A stretch of DNA of 64,000 nt from Planctomycetota bacterium (GCA_044222185.1 JBGANV010000007.1:96001-160000); one strand, 5' to 3'; counted from the stretch's first letter, positions 1,159 to 16,638 are shown. Notes: generated by a model from the letters alone, not told the origin. Translations and numbers: made by a program.

Positions 1159-2358
1159 ATGCTCGCCATGAACGACGTGATCCTGATTCAATACGACGAG
1201 ATCGGCTTGAAGGGCGGCCGAAGCACGTTCTGCGAGAAGCAGTTGGTCCGTGCGGTTCAGAACGCTTTGCGCGATTTTGGGTCGGTGGCCGTCGAGGGGG
1301 TCCGAAACCGGTTCCTGATTCGCCTCGCGGAGAAGCCCTTCACAGCAGGGGTTGCGATGGATCGCCTCTCCCGTGTGTTTGGCGTCCGGTATCTCCTGCA
1401 CGCCATCGAGACGGAGCCGTCACTGGCGGCCGTTGCGGCGGCCGCGATCGAGCTGGTTACACGTGAGACCGGGGCGCGCTCGTTCGGAGTGCGGGTGCGA
1501 CGGGTGGACTGGCCCGCCGACCAGTCGTCACCTCAGATCGAGCGGTGGCTCGGCGACGAGGTCGGCCGGGCCAGCGGCCTGCCTGTCTCGCTCGAGAACC
1601 CGGACGTCTGGATCCGAGTCATGCTCGTGTCGCGCAGGGGCCTCGTGGGAGTACGCCGGGTGGATGGTCCGGGCGGACTCCCCAGCGGGTCGTCCGGCCA
1701 CGGGGTCGTGCTCCTTTCCGGGGGCATCGACTCGCCGGTCGCCGCCTGGATGATGATGGGGCGCGGGCTGAAGGTCTCCGCCGTCCACTTCCATTCCGCG
1801 CCGTTCACGAGCGCGGAGAGTCAGCGGAAGGTGAAGGATCTCCTCGCGGCCCTCTCGCGCTGGCAACCCACCGTCCCCGCCGCCTTCATTCCCTTCGCGA
1901 CGACGGTTCAGCAGGCGATCATCCAGAACACGCCACCGAAGTTCCGGGTCCTGCTCTACCGTCGTTTCATGCTCCGCATCGCAGAGAAACTCGCGCGGGC
2001 GGTCGACGCGACAGCCCTCATCACCGGCGACGCACTGGGACAGGTCGCGAGTCAGACGATCGAGAACCTGGCGACGACGGAAGCCGTGGCCGTACTGCCG
2101 GTCTTTCGTCCGCTCGTCGGCATGGGGAAGGAGCAGATCATCACCACGGCACGGAGGATCGGGACCTATGAAATCTCGATCCGTCCTCATGACGATTGCT
2201 GCTCGTATCTCGCGCCCCGCAACCCGGCGACCTCGAGTACCGCTGCCGAGCTGGACGAAGTCGAGCGCAGCCTGCCGGTTCAGGATCTGGTGGACGCGGC
2301 GGTCCGTGCGCGCGAGGTCTTCTCCGTGCGCTTCGAGCGCGACGTCTTCGGATCGTGA
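1159..2358 (+). CDS. thiI: tRNA 4-thiouridine synthase ThiI (THUMP + PP-loop, no rhodanese domain)
   Basis: N-terminal YDEIGLKG, PP-loop LLSGGIDSPVA, TGDALGQVASQT, RPLVGMGKEQI, C-terminal PHDDCC. Start may be ATG 1168. Confidence 0.93.
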   Translation: MLAMNDVILIQYDEIGLKGGRSTFCEKQLVRAVQNALRDFGSVAVEGVRNRFLIRLAEKPFTAGVAMDRLSRVFGVRYLLHAIETEPSLAAVAAAAIELVTRETGARSFGVRVRRVDWPADQSSPQIERWLGDEVGRASGLPVSLENPDVWIRVMLVSRRGLVGVRRVDGPGGLPSGSSGHGVVLLSGGIDSPVAAWMMMGRGLKVSAVHFHSAPFTSAESQRKVKDLLAALSRWQPTVPAAFIPFATTVQQAIIQNTPPKFRVLLYRRFMLRIAEKLARAVDATALITGDALGQVASQTIENLATTEAVAVLPVFRPLVGMGKEQIITTARRIGTYEISIRPHDDCCSYLAPRNPATSSTAAELDEVERSLPVQDLVDAAVRAREVFSVRFERDVFGS

Positions 2359-3269
2359 TCTCGGGCCGGAGCGGCCAGTGCGAGGAGGCCGTGAGCGAGC
2401 CACCCGACGACTTCGGCGATCGCCGCCGCCTCGCCGCCCTCGCCCGAGCCAAGCGCCTGCGCGCGCCGAACGGCCAGTGATTCGAGCCGGAATCGCGACT
2501 TTCCGCGCGCCGCGCGCACCTGACGCCAGGCGGGGGCATCGAGTTCCACGATGCGGGGCAGGAGCGACTCCGGGTCGCGCGTCAATGCGAGGTACTCATC
2601 CGCGCGCCGGACCGACTGGTGCACGGTGCGCAGCTCACGCCTTCGATCGCGCACCAGCGTGACGAGCTCCTTCACGTTGTGCCGCATGCGGAAGAACTGC
2701 ACGTGTCGCGGGACCACGACGGTCGTCTGGAGGAGGTCGTCGACGGTGCCCTGGGCGATCCGCTCGATCACCGCTCGCGTCGCGGGAATCTCGGACCCGT
2801 CGAGTGCGTACTCGACGTCGAGCCGCGCGCATTCGATCGCCGCAAGCTCGCCAAGGACGGGAACACGCTCGAAAGCCGCACCGAACGTCTTGCGCAGGAA
2901 CGCGCGGAAGCGGTCCGCGAGTTCGCGAAGGCTGTGGGTGCTCGCAGGGCCATCGAGGAGGAACGCTTCGATCATCGCACGAAACGTCATCGGCTTCGTC
3001 GCGCGCGGACCCGACTTCTGCGCGAGACCGAGGACGGCGAGCGTGGTTGCAAACGTCCACCCGAGCATGGACTGGTGGCCGCCGACGACCAGGTCGTGGT
3101 AGACGGCGAGGCGCTCCCTGGGGATGCGTGCCAGGGCGTCGCGCTCGCGGGCGCGCAAGCCGGGTGTCGTTGTGACGATGCGGTGCGCCGAGCGGGCACC
3201 CGACGAGAACTCGGTCGTCGAGTGCAGGACCATGTCGCGGAACGCAGCTTGGACGTGACGTAGCGGCAT
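2280..3269 (-). CDS. DUF2063/HvfC-like MNIO partner protein
   Basis: Real start inside ORF 2280..3587 (MPLRHVQAAFRDMVL). Motifs ERLAVYHDLV...TFATTLAVLG...FRAMIEAFL...SLRELADRFRAFL...LGELAAIE match the usual DUF692 partner. Lies directly downstream of the DUF692 gene. Confidence 0.75.
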   Translation of the reverse strand: MPLRHVQAAFRDMVLHSTTEFSSGARSAHRIVTTTPGLRARERDALARIPRERLAVYHDLVVGGHQSMLGWTFATTLAVLGLAQKSGPRATKPMTFRAMIEAFLLDGPASTHSLRELADRFRAFLRKTFGAAFERVPVLGELAAIECARLDVEYALDGSEIPATRAVIERIAQGTVDDLLQTTVVVPRHVQFFRMRHNVKELVTLVRDRRRELRTVHQSVRRADEYLALTRDPESLLPRIVELDAPAWRQVRAARGKSRFRLESLAVRRAQALGSGEGGEAAAIAEVVGWLAHGLLALAAPARDHDPKTSRSKRTEKTSRARTAASTRS

Positions 3270-3277
3270 GTTCACTC

Positions 3278-4135
3278 TCAGGCCGAGCGGGCCGGTTTCC
3301 GTTCGGCAGCGAAACCTGTTCGGGAGACGATGCGGGCGGCGCGAGCCGCCTCCTGGAGCAATCGCTCCCAGGTGGGAATGTCGTTGTCCCACTCGATCAT
3401 CACGGAGCAGGGCGGCAGGAGCGGGAGCACCCGCTCGAACAGCCGCCAGACCGGCGGCGGCACCGGCGCACCGTGAGTGTCGACGAGGATCTCTCCCGAG
3501 TCGTCGTGCCCCGCGAGATGCACCTGGACCACGCGTTCCAGCGGCAGGCGCGCGATCATCGCCTCGGCGTCGTAGCCGTGATTGCACGCGTTGACGTAGA
3601 CGTTGTTCACGTCCAGGAGCAGTCCGCAGTCCGCTTCTTCGCAGACTGCGCGGATGAACGTCGCTTCGTCCATCTCGCTGTCGTCGACGACGGCGTAGTA
3701 CGACGCGTTCTCGACCAGGTAGGGCACTCCGACTGCGTCCCGCACACGGGTCACGTTCTTCGCGATCCGTCGGACGGCTTCTTCCGTGAACGGCATGGGG
3801 ATGAGCTCGTTCATCGAGATCGGGCCTGCGGTGGAGTACGAGAGGTGATCGCTCGCCCAGAGCGCGTTCGCCGATCTCACCGTGTCACGAAGGTGACGGA
3901 GGAACGTGCGATCGACCGGGCGATCGGACCCGAGCGAGGCGCCAACGCCGTGCGCGACCATGGGGAATCTCTCGGCGACGGCCAGGAGGTTCCGCCGGTG
4001 GAGCCCGCCGCGGTTCATGTAGTTCTCGGGAGTGAACTCGAACCAGTCGACGCCCGGCGCGGTCTCCAGGATCCGTGCCACGTGTGGCCTGCGCAGGCCC
4101 ACACCGATCCCGAGCGGGCGGGTAGCGGATGTCAT
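3278..4135 (-). CDS. DUF692 family multinuclear non-heme iron-dependent oxidase (MNIO)
   Basis: GIGVGLRRPH, FEFTPENYM, AHGVGASLGS, SDHLS, LVENASYY, LLLDVNNVYVN, QVHLAGH, VDTHG and IEWD motifs intact. Start placed at ATG 4135. Confidence 0.93.
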   Translation of the reverse strand: MTSATRPLGIGVGLRRPHVARILETAPGVDWFEFTPENYMNRGGLHRRNLLAVAERFPMVAHGVGASLGSDRPVDRTFLRHLRDTVRSANALWASDHLSYSTAGPISMNELIPMPFTEEAVRRIAKNVTRVRDAVGVPYLVENASYYAVVDDSEMDEATFIRAVCEEADCGLLLDVNNVYVNACNHGYDAEAMIARLPLERVVQVHLAGHDDSGEILVDTHGAPVPPPVWRLFERVLPLLPPCSVMIEWDNDIPTWERLLQEAARAARIVSRTGFAAERKPARSA

Positions 4136-4176
4136 CGAGCGTTGGGGTGCCATCGAGGGGGTGCTTCGGAACGAAA

Positions 4177-4221
4177 CCGCGCGGGCATCGCCGCTCGACG
4201 GAGCGGGATGCACGCGCGCGG
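4177..4221 (-). terminator. GC-rich hairpin (leaky terminator or mRNA stabiliser) between precursor and MNIO genes
   Basis: Arms ccgcgcg-gcatc-ccgctc / gagcgg-gatgc-cgcgcg around a 4-nt loop, followed on the minus strand by a weak TTTCGTT tract. Confidence 0.5.
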
Positions 4222-4264
4222 GTCGAGCCGGGCCGTCGCGGCCTGACTCACGGGGTGATCGGCA

Positions 4265-4546
4265 TCACTTCGCGGAGCCGCAGGACTTCGTCCCGCCGCA
4301 GCTCTTGTTCGAGCCGCAAGACTTGTTGCCACCACAGCTCTTGTTCGCGCCGCAGGACTTGTTCGCGCCACAGGATTTGTTGGCGCCACACGATTTGTTG
4401 CCGCCACAGCTCTTCTGGTCGGCTGACGTGCCCGTCGATCCCGTCTCATCGCTCGAGCACGCGGGCAGCATCAAGCCACCGAGCCCGAGGAGGGCGCTGG
4501 CGACGATCACCTTGCGGAACTTCGTGAACGGCTTCTTCGAGGACAT
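4265..4546 (-). CDS. Lipoprotein RiPP-like precursor with eight KSCG repeats (93 aa)
   Basis: MSSKKPFTKFRKVIVASALLGLGGLMLPA-C lipobox, Ser/Thr/Gly linker, then (KSCGxN)-type repeat x8. SD AGGGAG/AGGA upstream of ATG 4546. Directly upstream of DUF692. Confidence 0.88.
   Translation of the reverse strand: MSSKKPFTKFRKVIVASALLGLGGLMLPACSSDETGSTGTSADQKSCGGNKSCGANKSCGANKSCGANKSCGGNKSCGSNKSCGGTKSCGSAK
4268..4414 (-). repeat. 18-bp coding tandem repeat x8 (KSCG[G/A/S][N/T/A])
   Basis: Units such as AAGAGCTGTGGCGGCAAC and AAATCCTGTGGCGCGAAC; variation is mostly synonymous. Confidence 0.9.
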
Positions 4547-4634
4547 TCCTGATTCTCCCTTGATCTTCATCGAACTCTCCCATCGAGCCTCCGGCGCACG
4601 TGCGCCGACGCAAGATGGCCTATCGATGATGAGA

Positions 4635-4777: not shown

Positions 4778-6385
4778 TCAGCGCGGCCTGATCCGCGAGC
4801 CGAGGAGCAGATAGGACGGCTCGCCGTCGACGGCGGCGGCCGTCGCGCGAATCGGGAAATCGCGCAGCGATGTCGGAACCTCTGCCGCCGTGCCCTCGAA
4901 GAGCAGCAGGGCCCCCGGCGTCCCGTCCAGAAATGATGCGGCACCGTCGGGCGGGATGATGCGCAGGTCCGGTCGTCCCAACGCGAACGCGACCGCCGGG
5001 TTGGCGTCCAGGGACGCGAACGGGGCGTCGCCGACTTGCGGGGCCAGCGCTCGCATGATCGGGGCGACGGAGCGGTAGGGCGCGACGGCCGAGGCCACTC
5101 CGGCGTCAGCGAACAGACAGTCACTGACGAGCGGCAGCCCGAGCACGATCAGGCCGGCGGCCGTCAACTCGGTGCGCCGCCCGATCCTGTGGAGGATCAC
5201 GACGGCGGCGACGGCGAGAGTCAGGGAGGTGACGGCCGATGGGACCAATGGCGCCGCAGGATCCGCTCCAGGTGCCATGGCGGAGATGCCCCAGGTGACG
5301 GCTGCTACGGCGACGCCCAGCCCGGCCACGAACACGGCGGCCGTGCGCAACCGGCCCGCGAGCACTCGTACCGCGGTCGTGCCGCCCCAGACTGCGAAGA
5401 GGGGATAGAACGGCAGCAGGTAGTGCGACTGCTTGCTGCGGCTGACGGAGAAGACGATCAACCCGAGGATCCCCGTCAACGCGGCGGCGCGAACGGGCGG
5501 CAGCAATCGCCGCCAACCGAGGATCATCCATGGCAGGAGAAGACCCGCGGGCAGCAGCCCCTCCGGCAGTTTCTCCAGGTAGTACAGCGGCCCGCGACGA
5601 TGCTCGACGTTCGCCATCGTCAGGCGGTCGATCAATGCGCCCCACGAGCCCAGCGCACGTGCGACGGGCCAGGCCCAAAGGAGCGCGAACGCCACCGCGG
5701 TCACGACCAGCGCCACGGTCCCACGCCAGTGGGTCCACGGAGCGCGACGACGCGCGACGCTGCATCCGAGCATGAACGAGATGGGAAACAGGAGCGCGAG
5801 CACGGGGCCCTTCGTCCACGTCATCAGGCCGACGGAGAGGGAGGCCACGACCCACGGCCCGGCGCCGCGCACGTCGAAGAGAAACGGACCCGACAGCGCG
5901 AGGTAGCCAGCCGTCGCCAGCGTCGTCAGCAGGATCTCGAGCTCGGTCGAGCGCGCCTGCGTGAAGAAGCGGAAGCTCGCCAGGAGGAAGAGCCCGGATG
6001 CGAGACCCGCCAGCGGCCCCCCGAGGCGCCGGCCCAGGCGGGCCGTGAGCCACACGCAGACGGTCGCGGTGAGGACCGACGCCAGCCGCATCAGCCACAG
6101 GTCCGTCCGTCCGGTGATCCCCGCGAGCGCTGCCGAGAGTGAATGCGCCAACGGTGGCTTGTTCACGTAGGGCTCGCCGAGCATGTAGGTCGGGAACAAA
6201 CGTCCGTGGGTCGCGATGTCCCAGGCGACCAGCGGAACGCGGCCCTCCGATCGTTCGTCCATGTCCCGCGCTGCCAGCCAGGGGATGAGGGTCGCCACGG
6301 TCACGAGTCCGAGGACGAGCCCCGTCGCAAGTCCTGACGGTCCCGGTGCTGCTTGCGTTTCGGTCGTTTCGATCGGGTCTGACAC
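4778..6385 (-). CDS. ArnT/PMT family (GT-C) membrane glycosyltransferase
   Basis: SEGR near the N-terminus, GEPYVNKPPL, TKGP, HRRGPLYYL, SKQSHYLLPFYP; many TM helices. Confidence 0.85.
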   Translation of the reverse strand: MSDPIETTETQAAPGPSGLATGLVLGLVTVATLIPWLAARDMDERSEGRVPLVAWDIATHGRLFPTYMLGEPYVNKPPLAHSLSAALAGITGRTDLWLMRLASVLTATVCVWLTARLGRRLGGPLAGLASGLFLLASFRFFTQARSTELEILLTTLATAGYLALSGPFLFDVRGAGPWVVASLSVGLMTWTKGPVLALLFPISFMLGCSVARRRAPWTHWRGTVALVVTAVAFALLWAWPVARALGSWGALIDRLTMANVEHRRGPLYYLEKLPEGLLPAGLLLPWMILGWRRLLPPVRAAALTGILGLIVFSVSRSKQSHYLLPFYPLFAVWGGTTAVRVLAGRLRTAAVFVAGLGVAVAAVTWGISAMAPGADPAAPLVPSAVTSLTLAVAAVVILHRIGRRTELTAAGLIVLGLPLVSDCLFADAGVASAVAPYRSVAPIMRALAPQVGDAPFASLDANPAVAFALGRPDLRIIPPDGAASFLDGTPGALLLFEGTAAEVPTSLRDFPIRATAAAVDGEPSYLLLGSRIRPR

Positions 6386-6553: not shown

Positions 6554-6754
6554 ATGTCCGACCGACGCGACAACTCCGGCTCCGAGCCCGCATCTCGTGA
6601 GAGACCCGGCTTCCCCGCACGCCTCCCTGACGTCATCGAGAGCGTGAAGCGTGCCTGGGCAGCGCTGCGCGAACGGCTCGGCATCGCCGAGGAGCGCATC
6701 CCGGTGCCCGTCCGCGTGCCCGCACAGCGGTCAGCCCCCCGTCGTCCGCGCTGA
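6554..6754 (+). CDS. Small hypothetical protein (66 aa) with IPVPVRV motif
   Basis: ATG 6554; amphipathic helix VIESVKRAWAALRERLG followed by IPVPVRVP; fills the gap between two minus-strand genes. Confidence 0.5.
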   Translation: MSDRRDNSGSEPASRERPGFPARLPDVIESVKRAWAALRERLGIAEERIPVPVRVPAQRSAPRRPR

Positions 6755-7606
6755 CGTACGAACGAGCGTTTCCGGATCCAGCCGGCGCGCTTCGTGGCCT
6801 CTGACGCGCGACACCTCGCGCGACACGACCTCCTCGGTCGAGGACAGGTCTCCGATCGCCGCCTCGCGGGCGTAGCGTGCGAGGAACCTCGACGCGTGCT
6901 CCGTGCCGAGGATCAACTCGCATGCGAGGGCGATGGGCGCGAGGTCTCGCGCATGACGGCGCGATACCGTGCCTCGCCAACGCGAGCGTGCGCCGCGGCC
7001 CGCGTCGATGGCGCGGAACTCGGGCGTCACCATCTCCGGTGCTCGCACGAGGACGTTTCGCGCGTTCAGGTCACCGTGTACGAAGCCGGCGCGATGGACG
7101 CGCGCGACCCACCCCGCGAGCGCATCCACGGCCTCCGCAGCGCCATGCGCGCTCCATCGGCTTGCAGCCGCGAGCCATCGATCGAGACGGATGGCGCCGT
7201 GAAACTCCTCCGTCACGAGGAGCGCCGAGCGAAGCAGCCCGAACTGGCGTCGCTCGCCGAGGGCGAGCCGGCCGACGGTTGGAATGCCGAGCTCCTCCTG
7301 AATGCGCAGACTGCGCCACTCCCGCTCCGCGCGATGCCACCACATGCGCCGCGAGACGATCCGCAGGACGAGATCCAGGGGCGTCGGGTAGTAGAAGCAC
7401 TTCGCGAACACGGCGCGACCGCCGTCGATCTGGAGGCGCCGCACCCAGCTCGTCCGCGACCCCGCCACGAGCTCTCCTCTCGCGAAGGCGTCGATGCCCT
7501 CGAGCGAGGTGATCGCCAGCGCCGCGACCGCGCGTTCTCCACCGGCGTGGAACCGCCAGCGGTCGCCGTGCCAGCGGGCCGAAGGAATGCGGCGCTTCCC
7601 GTTCAT
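6731..7606 (-). CDS. Lipopolysaccharide kinase (Kdo/WaaP/InaA family)
   Basis: VFAKCF, RAEREWRSL, LVTEE, HGDLNARNVL catalytic loop, IDAG, RDL. Confidence 0.85.
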   Translation of the reverse strand: MNGKRRIPSARWHGDRWRFHAGGERAVAALAITSLEGIDAFARGELVAGSRTSWVRRLQIDGGRAVFAKCFYYPTPLDLVLRIVSRRMWWHRAEREWRSLRIQEELGIPTVGRLALGERRQFGLLRSALLVTEEFHGAIRLDRWLAAASRWSAHGAAEAVDALAGWVARVHRAGFVHGDLNARNVLVRAPEMVTPEFRAIDAGRGARSRWRGTVSRRHARDLAPIALACELILGTEHASRFLARYAREAAIGDLSSTEEVVSREVSRVRGHEARRLDPETLVRTSARTTGG

Positions 7607-7799
7607 CGCTCAGGAAACTATCAGCCGGCGTTCGACCCAACGGCTGAGGCGAGCCTGGAATCCCCGCGCCGGCGAGGCTCGGCCGCGTGGCGGTTTCGGG
7701 CCGCGAGGAAAATCCGGCGGTTCATTTCGGACGTTCTTCGGGCGGGTCGCGCCAAGGGATTCGGACGCGGTGATCGACCGCGATGGAGGCCGAACCCAG

Positions 7800-8483
7800 A
7801 TGACGACCGACATGATCCTGAACGGCAATGTGGATTTCGCGGACGAGCGGAACCTCGTTCTGGCCCTGCGACGGGGCGACGACGCGGCGTTCGAATTCGT
7901 CGTACGAACGTTCTCTCCCCGCCTGTTGCCGGTCGCGAGGCGTCTCCTGAAGAACGACACGGACGCGGAGGACGCCCTTCAAGATGCGTTTCTGTCTGCG
8001 TTTCGTGGACTCGATGCATTCTGCGAGGGTGCGCGGCTGTCCACCTGGCTTCATCGGATCGTCGTCAACGCGGCGCTGATGAAGCTCCGCCGGCAGCGCC
8101 GGAAGCCCGAGTGTTCAATCGACGAGCTCCTGCCGCGCTTCGACGCCGAGGGGCATCACGCCATCCCGATTGCAGCCGCCAGCGCCACGGCCGAGTCCTC
8201 GATCACGCGCGACGAACTGCATGCCCTCGTGCGGTCTCGCATCGCCGAGCTTCCGGACGACTATCGGAACGTGCTCGTCCTTCGCGACATCGAGGAACTC
8301 GACACGGAGGAAACCGCCGAGGTTCTCGGGATCAGCATCGCGGCCGTGAAGACCCGCCTGCATCGCGCGCGCCAGGCGCTGCGGACGCTGATCGCTCCGA
8401 GCCTCTTCGGCGCCGATGAGGCGAAGGACGCCGCGCCCGGACGGACGGCGCGGCGCCGCGACGTGGCGGCGCTCCTCGTGTGA
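7800..8483 (+). CDS. ECF RNA polymerase sigma factor
   Basis: DAEDALQDAFL, LSTWLHRIVVN (region 2); LPDDYRNVLVLRDIEELDTEETAEVLGISIAAVKTRLHRAR (region 4); GGAGG SD before ATG 7800. Confidence 0.93.
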   Translation: MTTDMILNGNVDFADERNLVLALRRGDDAAFEFVVRTFSPRLLPVARRLLKNDTDAEDALQDAFLSAFRGLDAFCEGARLSTWLHRIVVNAALMKLRRQRRKPECSIDELLPRFDAEGHHAIPIAAASATAESSITRDELHALVRSRIAELPDDYRNVLVLRDIEELDTEETAEVLGISIAAVKTRLHRARQALRTLIAPSLFGADEAKDAAPGRTARRRDVAALLV

Positions 8484-8486
8484 CGT

Positions 8487-11400
8487 TCAGGGCAAGAGGA
8501 GGCCGCGGGCTCTCAGGATGTCGCGCAGGGCGGCAACCGCCGACGGCTCGGCGGTATCGATGGCTCGCAGCCCATCGGATCGGATGCGTCCCCGGATCAT
8601 GCGGCGCCATGACTGGGGCGTCGTCGGGGCGAACGCGATCCGGGTTCCGGCGACCGTGCTCACGGTGAGCGGGCGACCCATTCTGTCGAACCATCTCTGG
8701 GCGAACGCCACGCGCGCGTCGTCGGAGGGCAGATTTGCCGCCACATCGGCGACGGCCCGCAACGTCTCGACCGTGTCGTCGAGCGAGGCGACGAAGGCCA
8801 CCAGGTCGCGAGGCTCGATCGGAGCCGGCGCCGAGTCCGTGCCGGTGGCCGCGGCCGCCAGTTGCTCGAAGGCCTGGGGCTGAACCGGGCCAAGCACGGC
8901 GAACAGGGCGACGCGATCACGCGCCGTGCGTCCGACGGACCAGCGGCGCCACAAGTCCAGGAGTTCCGGCCCCAGCGCCTTCTTCGCCGACGCAGGGAGG
9001 AGTCGGACGACGTCGATGACGGAACCTCGCTCCGGTCCCTCGGGCGCCGATGGATCCGGGCACGCCTCGGGCGACCCGAGGTAGTGCTTCAGGTCTTCCT
9101 TCGTCCATTGCGCCGCTCGTGCGGTCAGCGGCGATCCGTCGGGCAATCGTCCGAATCGTTGCACGTCCTGCGGCGTTGCCTGATTCGAAAGGTCGCTCCA
9201 CCAGGCGTTGACGTCCGCGTCGCTGGCGTTCTGGCTTCGGGTGAGCGCCGCCTCGAGCCAGCCGCGCACGATCGTGCCGGCGTCGGGCTCGCCGGCGCGC
9301 GCGCGCAGTCGCGTGTCGGTCCGCGTGTTCTCCGGATCGTCGAGGCTCCAAGGCACGGCGATGAAGTGCGCGTCGCCGAGAGCCCTGATGAGGATCGAGA
9401 CGATGGGCCCCTCGCGGGTTTGCGACAGCGCTGCCGCCACGGTTTCCGGATCGAACTCGACCCTCCGCCTGACCTCCGCCTCGAGCATCTGGAGCCGCGA
9501 CTCGGAGAGGTTTTGAAGCGCAACGAGCCGCGCGATCGGCAGGTCCTCGAATGGATTCGCTTCGATCCGAGCCAGGGCGGAGACGACTTCGTCGGCCACG
9601 TCCCGGGGGACGTCCTGCCGGAGTGCCTCGCGGAGGATCGCGACGGCGTCCGGCCGATCGAGAATCAGCTCCAGCGCTCTCTGCGCCGTCTCGCGGGACC
9701 TGAGTCGGGCGACGAACACGGGGACGGGAAGCGCGGCGCGGTCTCGCTTGTCGATCGCCTCGAGCGCCGGCATGGCCCATTCCGCGGAGCCCGTCGACGC
9801 CAGGCCCATGAGCATCAGTCCGAGAGTCGACTGGATCGGGACGCGTCCGCGCATGCGCGCGAGTACGGTCGTCGTCACGTCCTGCGCACGGGCGCTCGTG
9901 GCCGGATCGCCGCGCGCCCAGGCCACGATCACGCGGACGCGTTCCTGGATTGCCGCTGCGTCCGTGTCCGTCGTCACGGCCTCCGTTGGCAACGCTCCCG
10001 GGTCGAGGTCTCCGTTCACGAGGCTCGCGACGAGTGCGTCGGCGGCCGCGCGGTGCAACGCGGCGGCCTCGTCGAGCAACGTGGAAAACGATGCGTCGAC
10101 GCGTGCCCCGAACGGCGGGCGGACGACTGCCGCGCCGAACTCCAAGCCAAGCCGGGCCCATCGCACGTCGCCACGGTCCGTGGCGAGACGGCCGCGCACG
10201 AGGCGAATCAGCTCGAGCCAGCTGGCGAGCACGGCTTCGCTCCCGGTTGCGTCGCCGGTGACGATGCCATCGACGGTCGCGACCGCGTGAGCCGAGCCCG
10301 CGAAGGCGTCATTCAACCGCAGGTCGAGGATCGCATCCAGTCGCTCGCCGCGAGCGTCGGCCGAAGAGTCGTCGCCCCGTCGATCTCCCAGGGCCCTCAC
10401 GAGCATTCCCGGGTCGAACGAGCGTCGGATCGCGATCAACGCGGCGAGCCGCGCTTGCAGCGGCGTCATGGCCGGATCGCCGAGTTTCCAGCGGTCACCG
10501 AAGGCGCGCCCCTCGGTGGTCTGGCCGATGGCTGCGGCCAGCGCGGCGAGGGCCTCGATCGCGGGCGGATCGCCGAGGATCTCGGCGATCACGGGGCCGT
10601 TCAGGAGCTCCGTTCGATTCGCGCCCAGGGCCAGTACGAGCGGTACAAGCACCTCGGGCGTGCGAAGGAGCGGCGCGAGAGACCTCACCGCAGAGGCGAG
10701 CGTGGGACATGCGTCCGCGAGCGGAAGCCCGGCGAGCATGTCGAGGCGCGCGCGAAGAACGGCAGCGTCCGTGATGGACGGCAACGCCGCAATTGTCTCG
10801 TCGCGGATCTTCCCGATCGTCGCGGTCGAGAGCGCGTTCACGGTCGTCCGCGGCGCAACGGGCGCGCCCTCGTCCACGGCCCTGACGGCCATCCACGCGC
10901 CAGCGCCGACCAGCGCCGGGTTCTGAACCGCCCAGGCCGAATCCGGCGGCCAGGAGGCCTCGGTCGCGGACGTCACGACGAGTCGCATCCGGACCGTTCG
11001 CCGGCCGTCGTCTCCCGCGTCGTCGAAACCGATGAGGATCCGGTCATCGCGCAGGTCACCGGATGGCGTCGCCGTCAGGATCTGGCAGCCGGGCGGCAGC
11101 GGGCACTCGACGAGGAGCGGACCCGAGTCCTTCGGCGCCGTCACGCTCGTCTGGACGTCGAGCATCTCGCCGACGCGAAACGACAGCCGATCGGGCGCGC
11201 TGGCGGGCAGCGGCGAATCGGCACCGGCTCGTCGTACCTCGCGGACGACCGAGAGCAGGCCTGTCGAGGTGCGCGCCGCGTCCGGCCGCGGATGCCACGG
11301 GCGACGAATGAACGCGAAGACGGGACCGCTCGTCGCACGAACGGTGAAGGGGCGATCCTGCGCGCTCAAGTCGATCGTCTTCCGTGCGCCGCGACCAGCG

Positions 11401-14400
11401 ACGAGATCCACCGTCGAGACGGAGGGAACGCCCTCGACGTGCACGGTGACCGGAGGCAGCTCGGTGGGAAGCGGTGTCGTCCGAGTGCGCGCGAGCGCCG
11501 CGATGGCCAGCGCTCGCGAAAGCGGATCGCTCTCCGGGTTCGCTGCAAGCGCCGTCGTCACGGCCTCCGCCAATCGCTTGCGAACGGGCGGCGAGGCCTC
11601 GACCAGCGCCGCGAGCTCGAGCCTGTGCGCGGCCCGGGCGACGGCACTCTCGAGCCACGCCGGGCGAGTCACGTCGGCCACGGTGTCGCCGGCTTCGATC
11701 CGCGAGAAGGCAAGCTGGGCGCCCTCCGCGTCACCGGCGCGAGCGAGGACTGCTGCCGCCCAGGCGAGCAGCCCTGGAGGCTGGCGCGTCGATTGGCGGA
11801 CGAACGCCGCCACGGCATCGCGCGCGAACGCATGCGTCGCGTCGTACTCGAACGCGGCAATGGCCGTCGTCGTGACGATGGTCGGACGCTGCGCCACCGG
11901 CACGCGGTTGTTCCACGGCGCGAACTCCTGGATCTCCTCACCTTGGACGGCGACGGCGCCGTTTCCCCGCGCATCACTGAAGATCCTCCCGGCGAGGCGG
12001 GGGAACCCATCGCGGAAGTCGGGGAGGACGTTCAGCGCGTCGACGTCCAGGCCGAACGATCGAGCTACGGCGAACAGGTGAACGAGTCCCGGCGTCAGCT
12101 CGAAGTCCGTCGCCACGCCCTGGAGGCGCGCGAGGCCGTCCGCGGTACGGAACGTCCGCAGTCGGGCCGCGCGTTCGCCCGCGGCGCGGCGGGTGAGCTC
12201 GTCGCCGCCACTTGGCACCGGGTCTCCGAGGAGCTGCGCGAGCATGGTCGCAGCGAGGGCGTCGGCGGTGGGTGTACCGTCGACGAGGAGCTCCTCGCGG
12301 ACCTGGCGCACGAGTGCTGCTTCGCCGTACGCGAGGATGAGGGCCGTACCCGGCACTGTTTCCGCCGCCACGCTCGTGGCTTGACCGGCCGTCACGGGTT
12401 CCGTTCGCCACGTGCGTCCGACGGGCGTTGCGCCGACGGGGAAACGGGCCGAGTTCGTCGCGGCGACCCGGCCGTCCGCGCCCGCGGCCAGCACGCGGAA
12501 TTCGACGGAACCCGCGTTCGTGCGCGCCTGGATCCCGTAACGCCGCACGGCGACCTCGCCGGGCGTGAGCGTGATCGACTCGTGGGCGTCGATGAGCGGC
12601 GGATCGGTGACCGCGCCCGCGGCGATCGCCGTCGCGCGCAGTTCCAGGGTTCGTGGGGCGGCTTCGTCGGGGCCGATCCTCACCACGACCGTGGTCTGGT
12701 CACCTGGCCGCATGAACGACGGGGCGACGACGGCGATCGGCACGGCCCCGGTCGAGTCGATGGACGCCATGCCGAGACCCGGTGCACCGCCATCGTCGAA
12801 CGCGATCGCCGTGACACGCATGCGGCCAGGGCGATCCGGCATCGTCACGCGCGCCGCCACGCGCCCATCTGCGTCCGTCTCGAGGTCCGCGGCGAAGAAG
12901 ACCGTCCCCAGGGTGCTCGGCAACGTCCCCGACTCTCCGCGAAACGGGTTGAGCGGGGCCGACGGCGCGCTCACGCCGACCGAGCGGAACACGACGGAGT
13001 CATCGGACTCGCTCAGCACCGCGCCGACGGATCCGCCGGAGATCAGCTGGCCGACGACGCGCAGCGGCCTGTTGAGCGGAGCCGTGGCGAGCGTGTGGAC
13101 GTAGCTCGGTCGCAGCTGCGGTCGCATCAGTTCCGCGAGGTCCGAAGCGCGCAGATTGAACAGCGCTTGATCCTCGTCGACGACGGACAGGGCCACGCGG
13201 GCCTGTCTCGGGTTGCCGTTCCGGCTCGTCACGCGGACGGCGATCGAGGCTTCGGCGCCGGGTTGCACGCGCCGCGGAGCATCGCAGGCGACGACGAGGT
13301 TGCCGCCGGGTGGCGCCACGTCGACGACCAACGCCGCGTCGGCAGGGCGTTCGCGACGGGCTCGGAGTTCAGTCGCGACCGCCGCTCCCTCGCAAGGGCC
13401 GCTGGCGCGGCTGGCCGCGAGTTGAACGCGCGGCCACCACCTGCCGTCGGTCGCGAACGTCGCGGTGCCCTCCCCCCGATCGTCGAGCAGGACGCTCTGG
13501 ACGGCGATGGGGCCGATGCGCACCGCCGACACGAGGAAGCGCGTCCCGGGATCGCCGCGGAGCCGGACGGTGAGCGGTTCGCCCACGGCGGGGGCTGGTG
13601 TTTCGAGGTCCAGGGTCGCCACGGCGTCGGCCGTGCGCGCCGATCCTTCCGAGGGCACCCGGATGTCCCCGTTCCACGCGACGGTGGCCTGGTCGGATCC
13701 GCGGACGAGAATGCTGAGCTTGACCACGCCTTCGCGGACCAACGCCGCGGCGTCGAGTCCGGAAAGGCCCAACGACAGCTGTGTCCGTCCCGAGTCGTCC
13801 ACCGTGAACTCGTGGGATTCGCGATGGGCTCCGAGGGTGCAGGTGAGAGTTCCAGTCAGAGGCCCCGGCGACGTACCGTTCGACAGCCGCGCCGTGACGT
13901 CGATCTGCGGGTCGGGGTCGCCGGGGCGGTAGGTCGACGTCGTTCGTGCGTGGATCGTCAGCGGCGATCGCGCGGAGTCGCGCACGGAGAAGACCGGGAC
14001 GTCGGCCGCGACGTCGGCGTCGTCTTCGGGCTTGTCATCCGCCGGGACCTGCACGCGGATGCGCGCCACGCCCGGCCCCACGCCCGCGGGGAGCGTGAAC
14101 GTGACGTCGAATCCGCCGTGTTCGTCCGTGGCCCCGTGGAACGCGAGCGTCTGCGGTTGACGCGGAAACGCCGTGACGACGACCCTCGTTCTTGCTGCGC
14201 GGGTGAGACCCCAGGGGCGGTCGGGCAGCATGCCGGCGGCCGGCTCCTGACCGATCCCTGCCAGCTTCCAAAGCGAGACGCGCATGCGGACGACGTCGCC
14301 CGGGTCGTGGAAGGCCCGGTCCACGTCGACGTGCGCGACGTGTCCGGGGATCGTCGCCGGCTGGACCGCATCGGCTGTGAACGCGGCGACGGCGAGGTGT

Positions 14401-15467
14401 CGGCCGTACGACGCCTGGATGAGGGTGTGACGCGGTGCGAGCGCTCCCACCCAGGTGCCATCGTCGCGAGTCACGCCCGTGATCACCGCCGGCCATGCGC
14501 CGCCGTCGGTGCGATTGAACCCGGCCTGGGCTCTGGGATCGGTCGAGAACCGGAGTTTCACGCCAGGTGCGGGTTTGCCGGCGAGCGTCGCGAGGAGCGT
14601 CGCGCCGCCCGTCGTGCCGTGAGCGACGATCTCCAGGTCGGAGACGATGAGCGCGCGTACGCGACGTGCGCCCGTGACGGGGGAGGCGACCTCCACGCGA
14701 TACGCGCCGGGCTCGAAGCCGGGAAGCGGGTCGAGGGTGACGTCGCGGGGAAGGATGCGGTTGATCACGGGAGCCGAGGTCGGCGCGACGAACGACTCCG
14801 GCTCGAGCTCCTGCGTGTCGACGTCGATTCGGTGGACCTGCAGCGCGACGGATTCGGCGAGCGGCCACGGAAGGGGAATGGGCGTGCCGGAGGGGATCCG
14901 GATGGACGAGGGCCGCTGGCTCGCGAATTCGAGCAGGTAGCGCCGGGCCTGATCGAGGGCGAGGTGATCGGACGTCGGGATTCGCGCGCGCCGTGCGACG
15001 ACGTCGGCGAAGCCGGGCAGGAGCGCGGCGACCTCCGCGGACGAGGGGGCCTCGACGCGATGACGGCCGTCCCCCTCGGGGCGTTCGACGAATGGCTCGA
15101 AGAGGTCGGCACAGGACTGGGATTCGATGAGCATCGCCGCGAGGCCGGCGACGATCGCCGTGTCGGCGGCGGCGTCGTCGACGTAGGCGCGAGCGACGCC
15201 GAGCATCGCCCGCGGTCGCCGGCTCGGCGGCTCGGCCGCCGCGCGCAGGAGTGCGATCCGCGGAGCCATCTCCGTGGCGACAGCGGGATCGAGCGTGAAC
15301 GTGAGGTCGTCGAGCGCGGTGCGTGCGAGGACGGAGTCGTCGCGCAGCAGGGCTTCCTGGATCGGCGCCAGCGGCGACGAGGCGGGGAGCAGGACCTGGG
15401 CCGAAGCATGGCCCGCGAGGAGCGCGGACCCGACGGCAGCGAGCACCCGGATGATGAGAGTGCGCAT
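8487..15467 (-). CDS. Large secreted alpha-2-macroglobulin-like protein (MG domains), no thioester motif
   Basis: Signal peptide (..AGHASA-Q); MG2-like VDRAFHDPGDVV; A2M-like TVFFAADLETDADGRVAARVTMPDRPGRMRVTAIA and APSFMRPGD; bMG10-like FRVGEMLDV..LLVECPLPPGC..DLRDDRI. Confidence 0.8.
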   Translation of the reverse strand: MRTLIIRVLAAVGSALLAGHASAQVLLPASSPLAPIQEALLRDDSVLARTALDDLTFTLDPAVATEMAPRIALLRAAAEPPSRRPRAMLGVARAYVDDAAADTAIVAGLAAMLIESQSCADLFEPFVERPEGDGRHRVEAPSSAEVAALLPGFADVVARRARIPTSDHLALDQARRYLLEFASQRPSSIRIPSGTPIPLPWPLAESVALQVHRIDVDTQELEPESFVAPTSAPVINRILPRDVTLDPLPGFEPGAYRVEVASPVTGARRVRALIVSDLEIVAHGTTGGATLLATLAGKPAPGVKLRFSTDPRAQAGFNRTDGGAWPAVITGVTRDDGTWVGALAPRHTLIQASYGRHLAVAAFTADAVQPATIPGHVAHVDVDRAFHDPGDVVRMRVSLWKLAGIGQEPAAGMLPDRPWGLTRAARTRVVVTAFPRQPQTLAFHGATDEHGGFDVTFTLPAGVGPGVARIRVQVPADDKPEDDADVAADVPVFSVRDSARSPLTIHARTTSTYRPGDPDPQIDVTARLSNGTSPGPLTGTLTCTLGAHRESHEFTVDDSGRTQLSLGLSGLDAAALVREGVVKLSILVRGSDQATVAWNGDIRVPSEGSARTADAVATLDLETPAPAVGEPLTVRLRGDPGTRFLVSAVRIGPIAVQSVLLDDRGEGTATFATDGRWWPRVQLAASRASGPCEGAAVATELRARRERPADAALVVDVAPPGGNLVVACDAPRRVQPGAEASIAVRVTSRNGNPRQARVALSVVDEDQALFNLRASDLAELMRPQLRPSYVHTLATAPLNRPLRVVGQLISGGSVGAVLSESDDSVVFRSVGVSAPSAPLNPFRGESGTLPSTLGTVFFAADLETDADGRVAARVTMPDRPGRMRVTAIAFDDGGAPGLGMASIDSTGAVPIAVVAPSFMRPGDQTTVVVRIGPDEAAPRTLELRATAIAAGAVTDPPLIDAHESITLTPGEVAVRRYGIQARTNAGSVEFRVLAAGADGRVAATNSARFPVGATPVGRTWRTEPVTAGQATSVAAETVPGTALILAYGEAALVRQVREELLVDGTPTADALAATMLAQLLGDPVPSGGDELTRRAAGERAARLRTFRTADGLARLQGVATDFELTPGLVHLFAVARSFGLDVDALNVLPDFRDGFPRLAGRIFSDARGNGAVAVQGEEIQEFAPWNNRVPVAQRPTIVTTTAIAAFEYDATHAFARDAVAAFVRQSTRQPPGLLAWAAAVLARAGDAEGAQLAFSRIEAGDTVADVTRPAWLESAVARAAHRLELAALVEASPPVRKRLAEAVTTALAANPESDPLSRALAIAALARTRTTPLPTELPPVTVHVEGVPSVSTVDLVAGRGARKTIDLSAQDRPFTVRATSGPVFAFIRRPWHPRPDAARTSTGLLSVVREVRRAGADSPLPASAPDRLSFRVGEMLDVQTSVTAPKDSGPLLVECPLPPGCQILTATPSGDLRDDRILIGFDDAGDDGRRTVRMRLVVTSATEASWPPDSAWAVQNPALVGAGAWMAVRAVDEGAPVAPRTTVNALSTATIGKIRDETIAALPSITDAAVLRARLDMLAGLPLADACPTLASAVRSLAPLLRTPEVLVPLVLALGANRTELLNGPVIAEILGDPPAIEALAALAAAIGQTTEGRAFGDRWKLGDPAMTPLQARLAALIAIRRSFDPGMLVRALGDRRGDDSSADARGERLDAILDLRLNDAFAGSAHAVATVDGIVTGDATGSEAVLASWLELIRLVRGRLATDRGDVRWARLGLEFGAAVVRPPFGARVDASFSTLLDEAAALHRAAADALVASLVNGDLDPGALPTEAVTTDTDAAAIQERVRVIVAWARGDPATSARAQDVTTTVLARMRGRVPIQSTLGLMLMGLASTGSAEWAMPALEAIDKRDRAALPVPVFVARLRSRETAQRALELILDRPDAVAILREALRQDVPRDVADEVVSALARIEANPFEDLPIARLVALQNLSESRLQMLEAEVRRRVEFDPETVAAALSQTREGPIVSILIRALGDAHFIAVPWSLDDPENTRTDTRLRARAGEPDAGTIVRGWLEAALTRSQNASDADVNAWWSDLSNQATPQDVQRFGRLPDGSPLTARAAQWTKEDLKHYLGSPEACPDPSAPEGPERGSVIDVVRLLPASAKKALGPELLDLWRRWSVGRTARDRVALFAVLGPVQPQAFEQLAAAATGTDSAPAPIEPRDLVAFVASLDDTVETLRAVADVAANLPSDDARVAFAQRWFDRMGRPLTVSTVAGTRIAFAPTTPQSWRRMIRGRIRSDGLRAIDTAEPSAVAALRDILRARGLLLP

Positions 15468-15537: not shown

Positions 15538-16638
15538 CTATGCGTTTCGTGCGCGGTCGCGCAGCGGTTCTTGGCGCACGAGACAGTCCCGGCACGGCGA
15601 AGGGACCTCACCCGTGGCCATGGCGCGGCGAAGGCTGCGCGCCGGCGCGCCATTCCAGACGGCGTCGAATCCTTCGCGGTAGACGTTCCCGAGTCGGAGT
15701 TCGCGGGGTCCGCGACAACACGGAAAGGCCTCGCCGTCGGGCTCGACCTTCAGGTAATGACCGACCTGGGGGCAATACCCCGCCGCTTCGAGTGCCAGCT
15801 TGTCCTGCAGCGAGTCGACGACCAATGCCTCGGTGATCCGCAGGCCCTCCTCGCGGACCTTCCAGCGGCCTCCATGCGGACCGGCGATCCGGAGCGTGAG
15901 GTTGACCCCGCGGCGATGCGCCCGTTCCCGGGACGTTCGCAGGATCTCCTCCACTCGCTCGGCGCCGAGCCGGGCGACCGAGTGCTCCGCCGCATCGCTG
16001 GTGTTGTAGAGCTGCTCGAGAACCGTCACCTCGAACCCACCGTGATCCGCCACGAAGTCGATGAGCTCGGGGAGATGCGGAGCCGTTTCCGCCATGAACA
16101 CCGAGTGGACGACGCAAGCGATCTGCTCCGCCACGGCCCGCTGGAGCGCGTAGGTGATGTTGGGCAGGGCCTTCGCCCATTTTGCGGGCCACCGAACGGC
16201 CTCGAAGACGTGTGGAACGCTGGAATCGAGGGAGAGAGTGAGGCGGTAGAGGTGCGGCACCAGGCGGTCGAGCACCTCGGGCGTGAGCAGCGTCACGTTC
16301 GTGATGAGGTCGATGAACACGCGGTGCTCGCGGCACATGGCGATCATCGTGTCCACGTCGTTCAAGAGCGGCTCGCTCGTCGCCGACGGCACCCAAACGG
16401 TGACGCTCGGCAGGACGGAGCCGAGAAACGTGACCGCCTCAGCTTTCGGGGCGCGAATGACGGGCGGGTTCTCGGCCTGGCTGCACATGGGGCATCGCAG
16501 GTTGCACGCGGACGTGAAGGCATATTCCAGGATCGAAGGCCCGTGCTCGAACTGCTCGTCTCCTCGCGTGACGGACCGAGCTTCGCGTACGAACGCGCGG
16601 AGCACGGCGTCGACTTTTGCAGTGGTCGGATCGGGCAT
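15538..16638 (-). CDS. Radical SAM protein with SPASM/twitch domain
   Basis: CNLRCPMC; SEPLL; C-terminal YCPQ..VEPDGEAFPCC..LGNV..VWNG..PCRDC. Confidence 0.9.
   Translation of the reverse strand: MPDPTTAKVDAVLRAFVREARSVTRGDEQFEHGPSILEYAFTSACNLRCPMCSQAENPPVIRAPKAEAVTFLGSVLPSVTVWVPSATSEPLLNDVDTMIAMCREHRVFIDLITNVTLLTPEVLDRLVPHLYRLTLSLDSSVPHVFEAVRWPAKWAKALPNITYALQRAVAEQIACVVHSVFMAETAPHLPELIDFVADHGGFEVTVLEQLYNTSDAAEHSVARLGAERVEEILRTSRERAHRRGVNLTLRIAGPHGGRWKVREEGLRITEALVVDSLQDKLALEAAGYCPQVGHYLKVEPDGEAFPCCRGPRELRLGNVYREGFDAVWNGAPARSLRRAMATGEVPSPCRDCLVRQEPLRDRARNA

Follow-up and report, generated by a model that had tools for sequence, protein, structure and literature searches.

A 64,000-nt stretch of DNA from a Planctomycetota bacterium (GCA_044222185.1 JBGANV010000007.1:96001-160000) contains three co-oriented minus-strand genes at 2280-4546, which encode a Cys-repeat precursor peptide, then an MNIO enzyme, then a DUF2063/PME1-type partner. 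The whole stretch is referred to as the window, and positions are counted from its first letter. We are highly confident that this locus is a three-gene operon for a peptide made by ribosomes and modified after translation (RiPP) of the MNIO-PME1 ('captophorin' or bufferin-oxazolin) kind. The overall reading that we favor, with a fair degree of confidence, is that the mature peptide would be a thiooxazole-bearing, lipid-tethered, copper-sequestering array. The genes and the parts of the precursor are as follows.

4265..4546, minus strand: precursor gene (P0001), 93 aa plus stop
3278..4135, minus strand: MNIO (DUF692) gene (P0002), 285 aa from the ATG, with in-frame starts up to 4213
2280..3269, minus strand: DUF2063/PME1-type partner gene (P0004), 329 aa
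4460..4546, minus strand: signal peptide, residues 1-29, MSSKKPFTKFRK + VIVASALLGLGGLML + PA, read from the sequence itself
4457-4459, minus strand: codon of the proposed lipobox Cys30
4274..4417, minus strand: eight-hexad array, residues 44-91, the proposed MNIO modification sites

The MNIO gene lies 129 nt downstream of the precursor gene and is separated from the partner gene by 8 nt.

The precursor peptide, the MNIO and the partner protein

The precursor begins with a basic n-region (MSSKKPFTKFRK) and a hydrophobic h-region. These are followed by LPAC, which ends in Cys30, a 14-residue linker of Ser, Thr, Gly and acidic residues, the hexads, and a C-terminal AK. The hexads are, in order, QKSCGG, NKSCGA three times, NKSCGG, NKSCGS, NKSCGG and TKSCGS. 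The nine Cys residues, Cys30 and one in each of the eight KSCG motifs, are separated by gaps of 17, 6, 6, 6, 6, 6, 6 and 6. Cys30 is the sole Cys outside a KSCG motif and is followed by Ser, not Gly. Six-frame translation of the window revealed no other Cys-repeat ORF (open reading frame), and a run of at least 4 Cys at a spacing of 6 was unique to the precursor, except for its own antisense shadow. Runs of at least 4 Cys so spaced appeared in 6/200 trinucleotide-block shuffles, and the precursor run is 8.

Three observations lead us to infer that this small ORF is real and its motif selected. GC content at third codon positions (GC3) is 0.86 in frame compared with 0.40 and 0.63 out of frame, GGGAG is located 8 nt ahead of the ATG, and the repeats differ by synonymous changes only. 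At the nucleotide level the eight KSCG cores, each 12 nt long, fall into 7 versions that between them use AGC as well as TCN codons for Ser, and the underlying 18-nt DNA repeat is only 74% matched. Together the synonymous differences and the low DNA match indicate that the peptide motif, not the DNA, is maintained. The KSCG repeat thus appears to be under peptide-level selection, which counts against recent slippage or an assembly artefact. An AlphaFold2 (AF2) model of the precursor, built from a 4-sequence alignment, had a predicted local distance difference test score (pLDDT) of 44 and low confidence throughout, a result that is compatible with disorder yet is no evidence for it.

A scan of genome contigs gave four loci. 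L002 and L004 are DUF2282 bufferin clusters and L003 is an EGKCG oxazolin cluster. L001, from a Planctomycetota metagenome-assembled genome, is the only one in the window's MNIO clade. Its MNIO is 70% identical, and the gene order is precursor, MNIO, partner, YceI-like gene and convergent thiI. In the L001 precursor, which has 90 residues, Ser-Ser comes directly after the lipobox (LGGC), and the KRCG, KHCA and KSCG motifs are irregularly spaced. A convergent thiI flanks the cluster in both the window and L001. The YceI-like gene (L001 2543-3160; PF04264, 97.7 bits), located between partner and thiI, has no counterpart in the window.

A word-seeded search for relatives of the precursor returned one protein, P0005. 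A HMMER scan of 1.84 billion representatives with the precursor generated 28 proteins at E≤1e-3, 13 long and 15 short. The 13 long proteins, each with at most one KSCG, were set aside as low-complexity matches. Among the 15 short proteins, P0132, P0147 and P0154 (the L001 peptide, 367-639) are close relatives. With the precursor they have in common (4/4) the N-terminus KKxFxKxR and an h-region followed directly by an aligned Cys-Ser-Ser, together with KSCG motifs. In these three an RRMD-x-x-D insert is conserved between irregularly spaced Cys motifs; the precursor has no insert and its array is regular. The remaining short relatives include x-K-x-C-G hexad arrays behind signals resembling those for signal peptidase I (SPI) or signal peptidase II (SPII). 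In one of them, P0137, the EKKCG/EAKCG hexads align without gaps to the precursor array (53% identity over 47 aa, pairwise E 1e-14), and its C-terminus, CGSAK, is identical to that of the precursor. Given this gap-free alignment, the precursor core is best seen as a putative Ser-for-Lys variant of hexad Lys-Cys arrays.

The HvfA models NF050137 and NF050188 matched 0/14 KSCG or hexad-type peptides at E≤1, that is, the precursor and 13 relatives. The EGKCG control precursor of L003 scored 31.2 bits on NF050137, for which the cutoff is 19.5. The precursor also lacked a DUF2282 match in Pfam at E≤1. The ESM Atlas gave sub-threshold leads (0.88) to unnamed clusters of 82-96 aa, commonest in Myxococcota, which were not used as evidence. 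A full-text literature search for 'KSCG' produced no RiPP paper among the matches listed.

The MNIO scored 332.7 bits on PF05114, and its best PDB match by sequence was 3BWW (E 7.5e-49). A 16-sequence alignment, which takes in two MNIOs from DUF2282 clusters and one from an EGKCG cluster, has ten invariant positions, H62, H97, E142, D175, N178, H206, D219, H221, E248 and D250, presumably including the metal ligands. The closest MNIOs are from Planctomycetota or unnamed metagenome records, with 91% identity for a fragment and then 70-61%. After these come myxobacterial 'bufferin maturases' at ∼49% identity. A maximum-likelihood tree of 123 rows was built from the window MNIO, 118/120 listed matches (two shorter than 260 aa were dropped) and the four locus MNIOs. 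The window MNIO fell in a separate clade of 12 rows with an ultrafast bootstrap of 100 and a Shimodaira-Hasegawa-like approximate likelihood ratio test (SH-aLRT) value of 99.

The partner passed PF09836 narrowly, with 33.7 bits against a cutoff of 27.2, and scored 31.8 bits on the HvfC model NF050145, whose cutoff is 142. HvfC was also failed by the partners of the two DUF2282 clusters (35.5 and 65.3), so the low score is not unusual; the L003 partner passed it (294.5). The AF2 model of the partner (7-sequence alignment; pLDDT 83.7, predicted template modeling score (pTM) 0.79) consists of an N-domain of helices, a C-domain of mixed alpha/beta structure and a basic tail that is disordered. When this model was compared with the PDB using Foldseek, 3DEE ranked first (probability 1.00, template modeling (TM) score 0.73 by target), followed by TglI (8hi7_A), while MbnC was at rank 6 with an E value of 0.52. 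3DEE is the PME1 partner of a Neisseria gonorrhoeae cluster, and PME1 partners of the captophorin class combine an N-terminal DUF2063 domain with a C-domain that is RRE-like (PMC13097082). With a named PME1 as its top fold match, the partner has the PME1 fold. It is rare: a search of 5.8 billion sequences, with 8000 candidates scored, found two proteins besides itself at E≤1e-3, to which the L001 copy adds a third relative. At their 3' ends, the partner gene and the convergent thiI (1159-2358, plus strand) overlap by 79 nt, 2280-2358. The overlap encodes the basic, low-pLDDT tail of the partner, and the tails of P0126 and P0127 are similar in character.

These results agree with much of the initial annotation of this DNA. 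It had called three co-oriented genes at these coordinates, and all of the ORFs are on the minus strand as stated. Its 93-aa peptide with eight KSCG hexads and a Cys every 6 residues was confirmed by translation and the gap count, and its MNIO gene by the Pfam score and the ten invariant His, Asp, Glu and Asn positions. The DUF2063-type partner that it named is upheld by PF09836 together with the PME1-fold match, and the curated models bear out its placement of the precursor outside the HvfA/EGKCG group.

The proposed pathway and its alternatives

In the proposed pathway, a cytoplasmic MNIO-PME1 heterodimer would use iron and O2 to turn each K-S-C-G Cys into a 5-thiooxazole, with a mass shift of -4 Da per site and about -32 Da over eight sites. 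Cys30, with Ser next instead of Gly, would be spared. After Sec export Cys30 would be diacylglyceryl-modified, and SPII would cut before it. The product, a lipopeptide of 64 residues, would have a flexible linker of 14 residues and eight thiooxazoles; its mass would be 5992 Da when unmodified and about 32 Da less after conversion. The tethered array would then act at the envelope, where it would sequester Cu(I) or some other thiophilic metal. In bufferin systems, MNIO-DUF2063 pairs form 5-thiooxazoles from Cys in the cytoplasm, after which Sec export leads to periplasmic copper sequestration (PMC12452194; bioRxiv 10.1101/2024.03.18.585515).

By analogy with characterized enzymes, the precursor Cys residues are probably converted to 5-thiooxazoles. 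The products of HvfBC, FonBC and NgoBC all bear 5-thiooxazoles, and the class name captophorins has been proposed for them (PMC13097082). In this class the conversion is marked by a loss of 4 Da and by absorbance near 305 nm. For FonBC, the residue before Cys can be Ala, Arg or Thr instead of Lys, and the one after it must be Gly or Ala (PMC13097082). S-C-G would therefore lie within the motif space tolerated by a characterized relative, although Ser itself is outside the residues tested in that study. The reported specificity sites are two Arg in the N-terminal region and the residue after the catalytic Asp, which is Phe in enzymes for Lys-Cys and Asp in those for Cys-Lys (PMC13097082). The window MNIO has Arg15-Arg16. 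Judging from the E-x-D-F/N motif, not from an alignment with FonB, D250 is the likely counterpart of FonB-Asp249, the proposed catalytic base. The residue that follows is Asn (Asn251) in the window MNIO and in the DUF2282-linked MNIOs of L002 and L004, and Phe in that of EGKCG-linked L003.

Several results weigh against a lipid-tethered, copper-sequestering thiooxazole array. The precursor matched no Pfam or NCBIfam family at E≤1, and synteny was assessed with one comparator, L001. The best NCBIfam model for the MNIO was BufB (NF050167), with 309.7 bits (E 1.4e-92), which is 0.3 under the cutoff of 310, and on HvfB (NF003818) it scored 268.6 bits against a cutoff of 360. The three clade relatives that were scored on BufB (305.3, 291.2 and 301.5 bits) were likewise under both the BufB and HvfB cutoffs (3/3), while the control MNIOs scored 330.3 and 376.1 on BufB (DUF2282-linked) and 412.6 on HvfB (L003). 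Since the window MNIO is under both curated equivalog cutoffs, isofunctionality is assumed, not certified. The Asn after Asp250 appears to fit neither of the residues known from the literature, Phe or Asp. LPAC fails a PS51257-like PROSITE pattern at one position only, the Pro at -2. No DoxX or copper-handling gene was found among the 62 window ORFs scanned with Pfam (0/62), as the initial annotation had said of DoxX in the adjacent genes. The only regulators among these ORFs, an extracytoplasmic function (ECF) sigma factor ∼3.2 kb off and a response regulator with a MerR-type helix-turn-helix (MerR-HTH) ∼19 kb off, are not linked to the cluster.

The membrane tether was considered first. Lipidation of Cys30 is likely, judging from the signal and its conservation. 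The initial annotation had reported a lipoprotein signal, LPA-C, which is plausible from the Cys-Ser-Ser conserved in 4/4 sequences, while the LPAC itself departs from the pattern as described. An unlikely but substantial alternative is that the chemistry is the same and the peptide a soluble periplasmic one, cut by SPI or with Cys30 unlipidated. Besides the Pro at -2, this is favored by hexad-array peptides, including P0137, P0141, P0143, P0148 and P0153, whose h-region ends without a Cys and which look SPI-like, and by the finding that most described bufferins and oxazolins are SPI-type (PMC12452194). Against it, the aligned Cys forms a canonical lipobox that passes this pattern in 3/4 (MGGC in P0132, MTSC in P0147 and LGGC in P0154), Cys30 is the one Cys outside the KSCG motifs, and lipidated members of the class are known (PMC13056109). 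Tethering through Cys30 is thus the version that we prefer.

Copper buffering as the physiological role is an even call. With no copper-handling gene or linked regulator among the 62 ORFs scanned, it is put forward by analogy. The lipopeptide could instead be made as proposed and serve another thiophilic metal, oxidant scavenging or an envelope-structural function, which we regard as improbable to about the same degree as a soluble peptide. In keeping with that idea, the neighbors of the cluster are thiI and a PMT_2-type glycosyltransferase gene, certain bufferins carry a MerC fusion, a hint at other metals (PMC12452194), and what EGKCG peptides do physiologically is still described as open (PMC13097082). 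What speaks for copper is that the class members tested all bind copper or protect against it.

It is considerably less probable that the MNIO performs another reaction on KSCG, such as methanobactin-like oxazolone-thioamide formation or some other Cys or Ser chemistry. The distinct, well-supported MNIO clade, the scores under BufB and HvfB, and Asn where the L003 enzyme has Phe would all be in line with it, and the MNIO family catalyzes many reactions (PMC13056109). However, BufB was by far the best model; the MNIO scored 121.3 bits on ApyH, 61.7 on ChrH and 41.8 on MbnB (TIGR04159, cutoff 325). The L002 and L004 MNIOs, which pass the BufB cutoff, have the same Asn, and all MNIO-PME1 pairs characterized so far install 5-thiooxazoles according to PMC13097082. 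Finally, it is very improbable that the peptide is an unmodified metallothionein-like lipoprotein beside an MNIO pair with another substrate, for although its modification is argued from analogy, the order precursor, MNIO, partner recurs in L001 and the window has no second Cys-repeat ORF.

Genomic neighborhood and candidate regulatory elements

Two noncoding elements were noted beside the precursor gene.

4136..4264, minus strand: 129-nt spacer between precursor and MNIO, with predicted RNA stem-loops
4592..4607, no strand assigned: perfect 16-bp palindrome CGGCGCACGTGCGCCG, candidate operator, 46-61 nt upstream of the precursor ATG

The spacer folds with a minimum free energy of -60.8 kcal/mol (z = -3.04), and 0/200 shuffles folded as well. 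The corresponding L001 spacer (640-706) forms a long GC-rich hairpin that is not significant (z = -1.2, 27/200 shuffles). The stem-loops may be an attenuator or an mRNA-stability element, and they may set how much precursor is made relative to enzyme. No Rfam family matched the window or the precursor flanks, and promoter and terminator scans found nothing. The palindrome could be an operator for some regulator. It has one exact copy in the window, 7 matches with at most 3 mismatches where 5.7 were expected, and no occurrence in L001-L004. The upstream regions of the window and L001 have no convincing common motif.

On the same strand, 231 nt upstream, a gene at 4778-6385 (minus) encodes a 535-aa membrane protein with a weak match to PMT_2 (GT39/ArnT-like, 33.4 bits). 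Given this neighbor and the Ser/Thr-rich linker of the precursor, O-glycosylation of the lipopeptide is conceivable. Upstream of the L001 precursor, 366 nt were available, and these contain no such gene. The ECF sigma factor gene (7794-8480, plus) is divergent, and the PMT_2-like gene and a Kdo/WaaP-family kinase gene (6731-7606) intervene between it and the cluster. Sigma factors are present in some Buf1 clusters (PMC12452194); this one is not linked to the cluster. Farther off and unrelated to the cluster, a 2326-aa alpha-2-macroglobulin-like protein (8487-15467, minus) is preceded by a radical SAM/SPASM protein (15541-16638, minus).

Novelty and comparison with known systems

The initial annotation had proposed a candidate new RiPP/metal-buffer system. 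That proposal does not hold, as MNIO-PME1 clusters with Cys-rich precursors behind Sec signals are already described (PMC12452194; PMC13097082), and a membrane-tethered, multi-Cys metallophore, which it had inferred, is in print as NedA (PMC13056109). Its claim that KSCG is a different repeat class stands to the extent that no HvfA model matched, and is weakened by the lipobox EKSCG/DKSCG precursors listed in PMC13097082. The novelty of the KSCG hexad array is that of a sequence variant and does not extend to the system. What is distinct is the combination of a dense, regular eight-hexad KSCG array without a Lys-Cys or Cys-Lys dyad, an MNIO in a separate clade outside both equivalogs, a rare PME1 and a Planctomycetota host.

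It is possible, although we would not expect it, that the locus represents a Planctomycetota-centered class in which eight thiooxazoles on an envelope-tethered, disordered chain bind several metal ions cooperatively, with a metal preference or localization that could differ from those of soluble bufferins and oxazolins. If the favored reading is true, thiooxazole metallophores extend to Planctomycetota with a K-S-C-G motif outside the dyads used to classify precursors, and the locus would lend itself naturally to testing how these iron enzymes select Cys. It would, moreover, be a second, denser lipid-tethered multi-site metallophore, with eight sites in 48 residues. The value is incremental since the concept is already published, and consists of a substrate class for enzymology and an annotation marker for small ORFs missed by current Pfam and NCBIfam models.

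In methanobactin MbnABC, as proposed here, an MNIO and its partner modify Cys of a ribosomal peptide to give a copper chelator. The window MNIO is far below the TIGR04159 cutoff, however, its partner is PME1-like and not MbnC-like, and the precursor has a Sec-type signal instead of a leader cleaved after export.

Bufferin systems (BufA1/BufA2 with BufB, BufC and sometimes BufD) are also similar, in that BufB is the best MNIO model and the WDN motif of the window MNIO is that of DUF2282-associated MNIOs. Bufferins protect against copper in the periplasm, and the three-gene Caulobacter buf2 cluster lacks DoxX (bioRxiv 10.1101/2024.03.18.585515). Lipoprotein signals are predicted for ∼16% of Buf2 bufferins (PMC12452194). 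The precursors of bufferins are small, folded proteins in which 4 or 6 Cys are conserved, whereas the precursor described here consists of repeats and lacks a DUF2282 match.

HvfABC (oxazolin), FonABC (fontiphorin) and NgoABC (gonophorin) combine, like the window, an MNIO-PME1 pair with tandem Cys-Gly motifs behind a signal peptide; they have 5-thiooxazole products and associate with copper (PMC13097082). Compared with the Lys-Cys captophorins, the precursor has Ser before Cys, neither a Lys-Cys nor a Cys-Lys dyad and a lipoprotein-type signal, and its MNIO has Asn for Phe.

Data set S2 of PMC13097082 contains KSCG 162 times, with 13 EKSCG, 4 DKSCG and 0 NKSCG. In the entries examined, SKSCG, AKSCG and TKSCG (139/162) are inside bufferin-like domains, while EKSCG and DKSCG are in lipobox repeat precursors from MNIO-PME1 clusters. 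An example of the latter is WP_269041315.1, with LGGC, a linker, xKSCGG and EKGCGG. These precursors have 2-3 irregular KSCG and a long tail rich in Ala, Thr, Pro and Lys, unlike the window precursor (PMC13097082). The string 'Planctomyc' occurs 0 times in the Data set S2 files, in which a listing of taxonomy was not checked for.

Also close to the window is NedA/NedBC of Neisseria dentiae, with a short SPII-type precursor, repeated x-K-C-G, and an adjacent MNIO and DUF2063 partner (PMC13056109). Experiments showed that NedA is triacylated and that its three EGKCG motifs account for a loss of 12 Da, 4 Da at each, and genome mining revealed lipoprotein signals among bufferins and oxazolins (PMC13056109). 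Compared by description, NedA has three EGKCG motifs and the window precursor eight KSCG hexads. Unlike HvfB/HvfC-type enzymes, the window MNIO and partner fail both of those models, and the host is a Planctomycetota bacterium, not a Neisseria.

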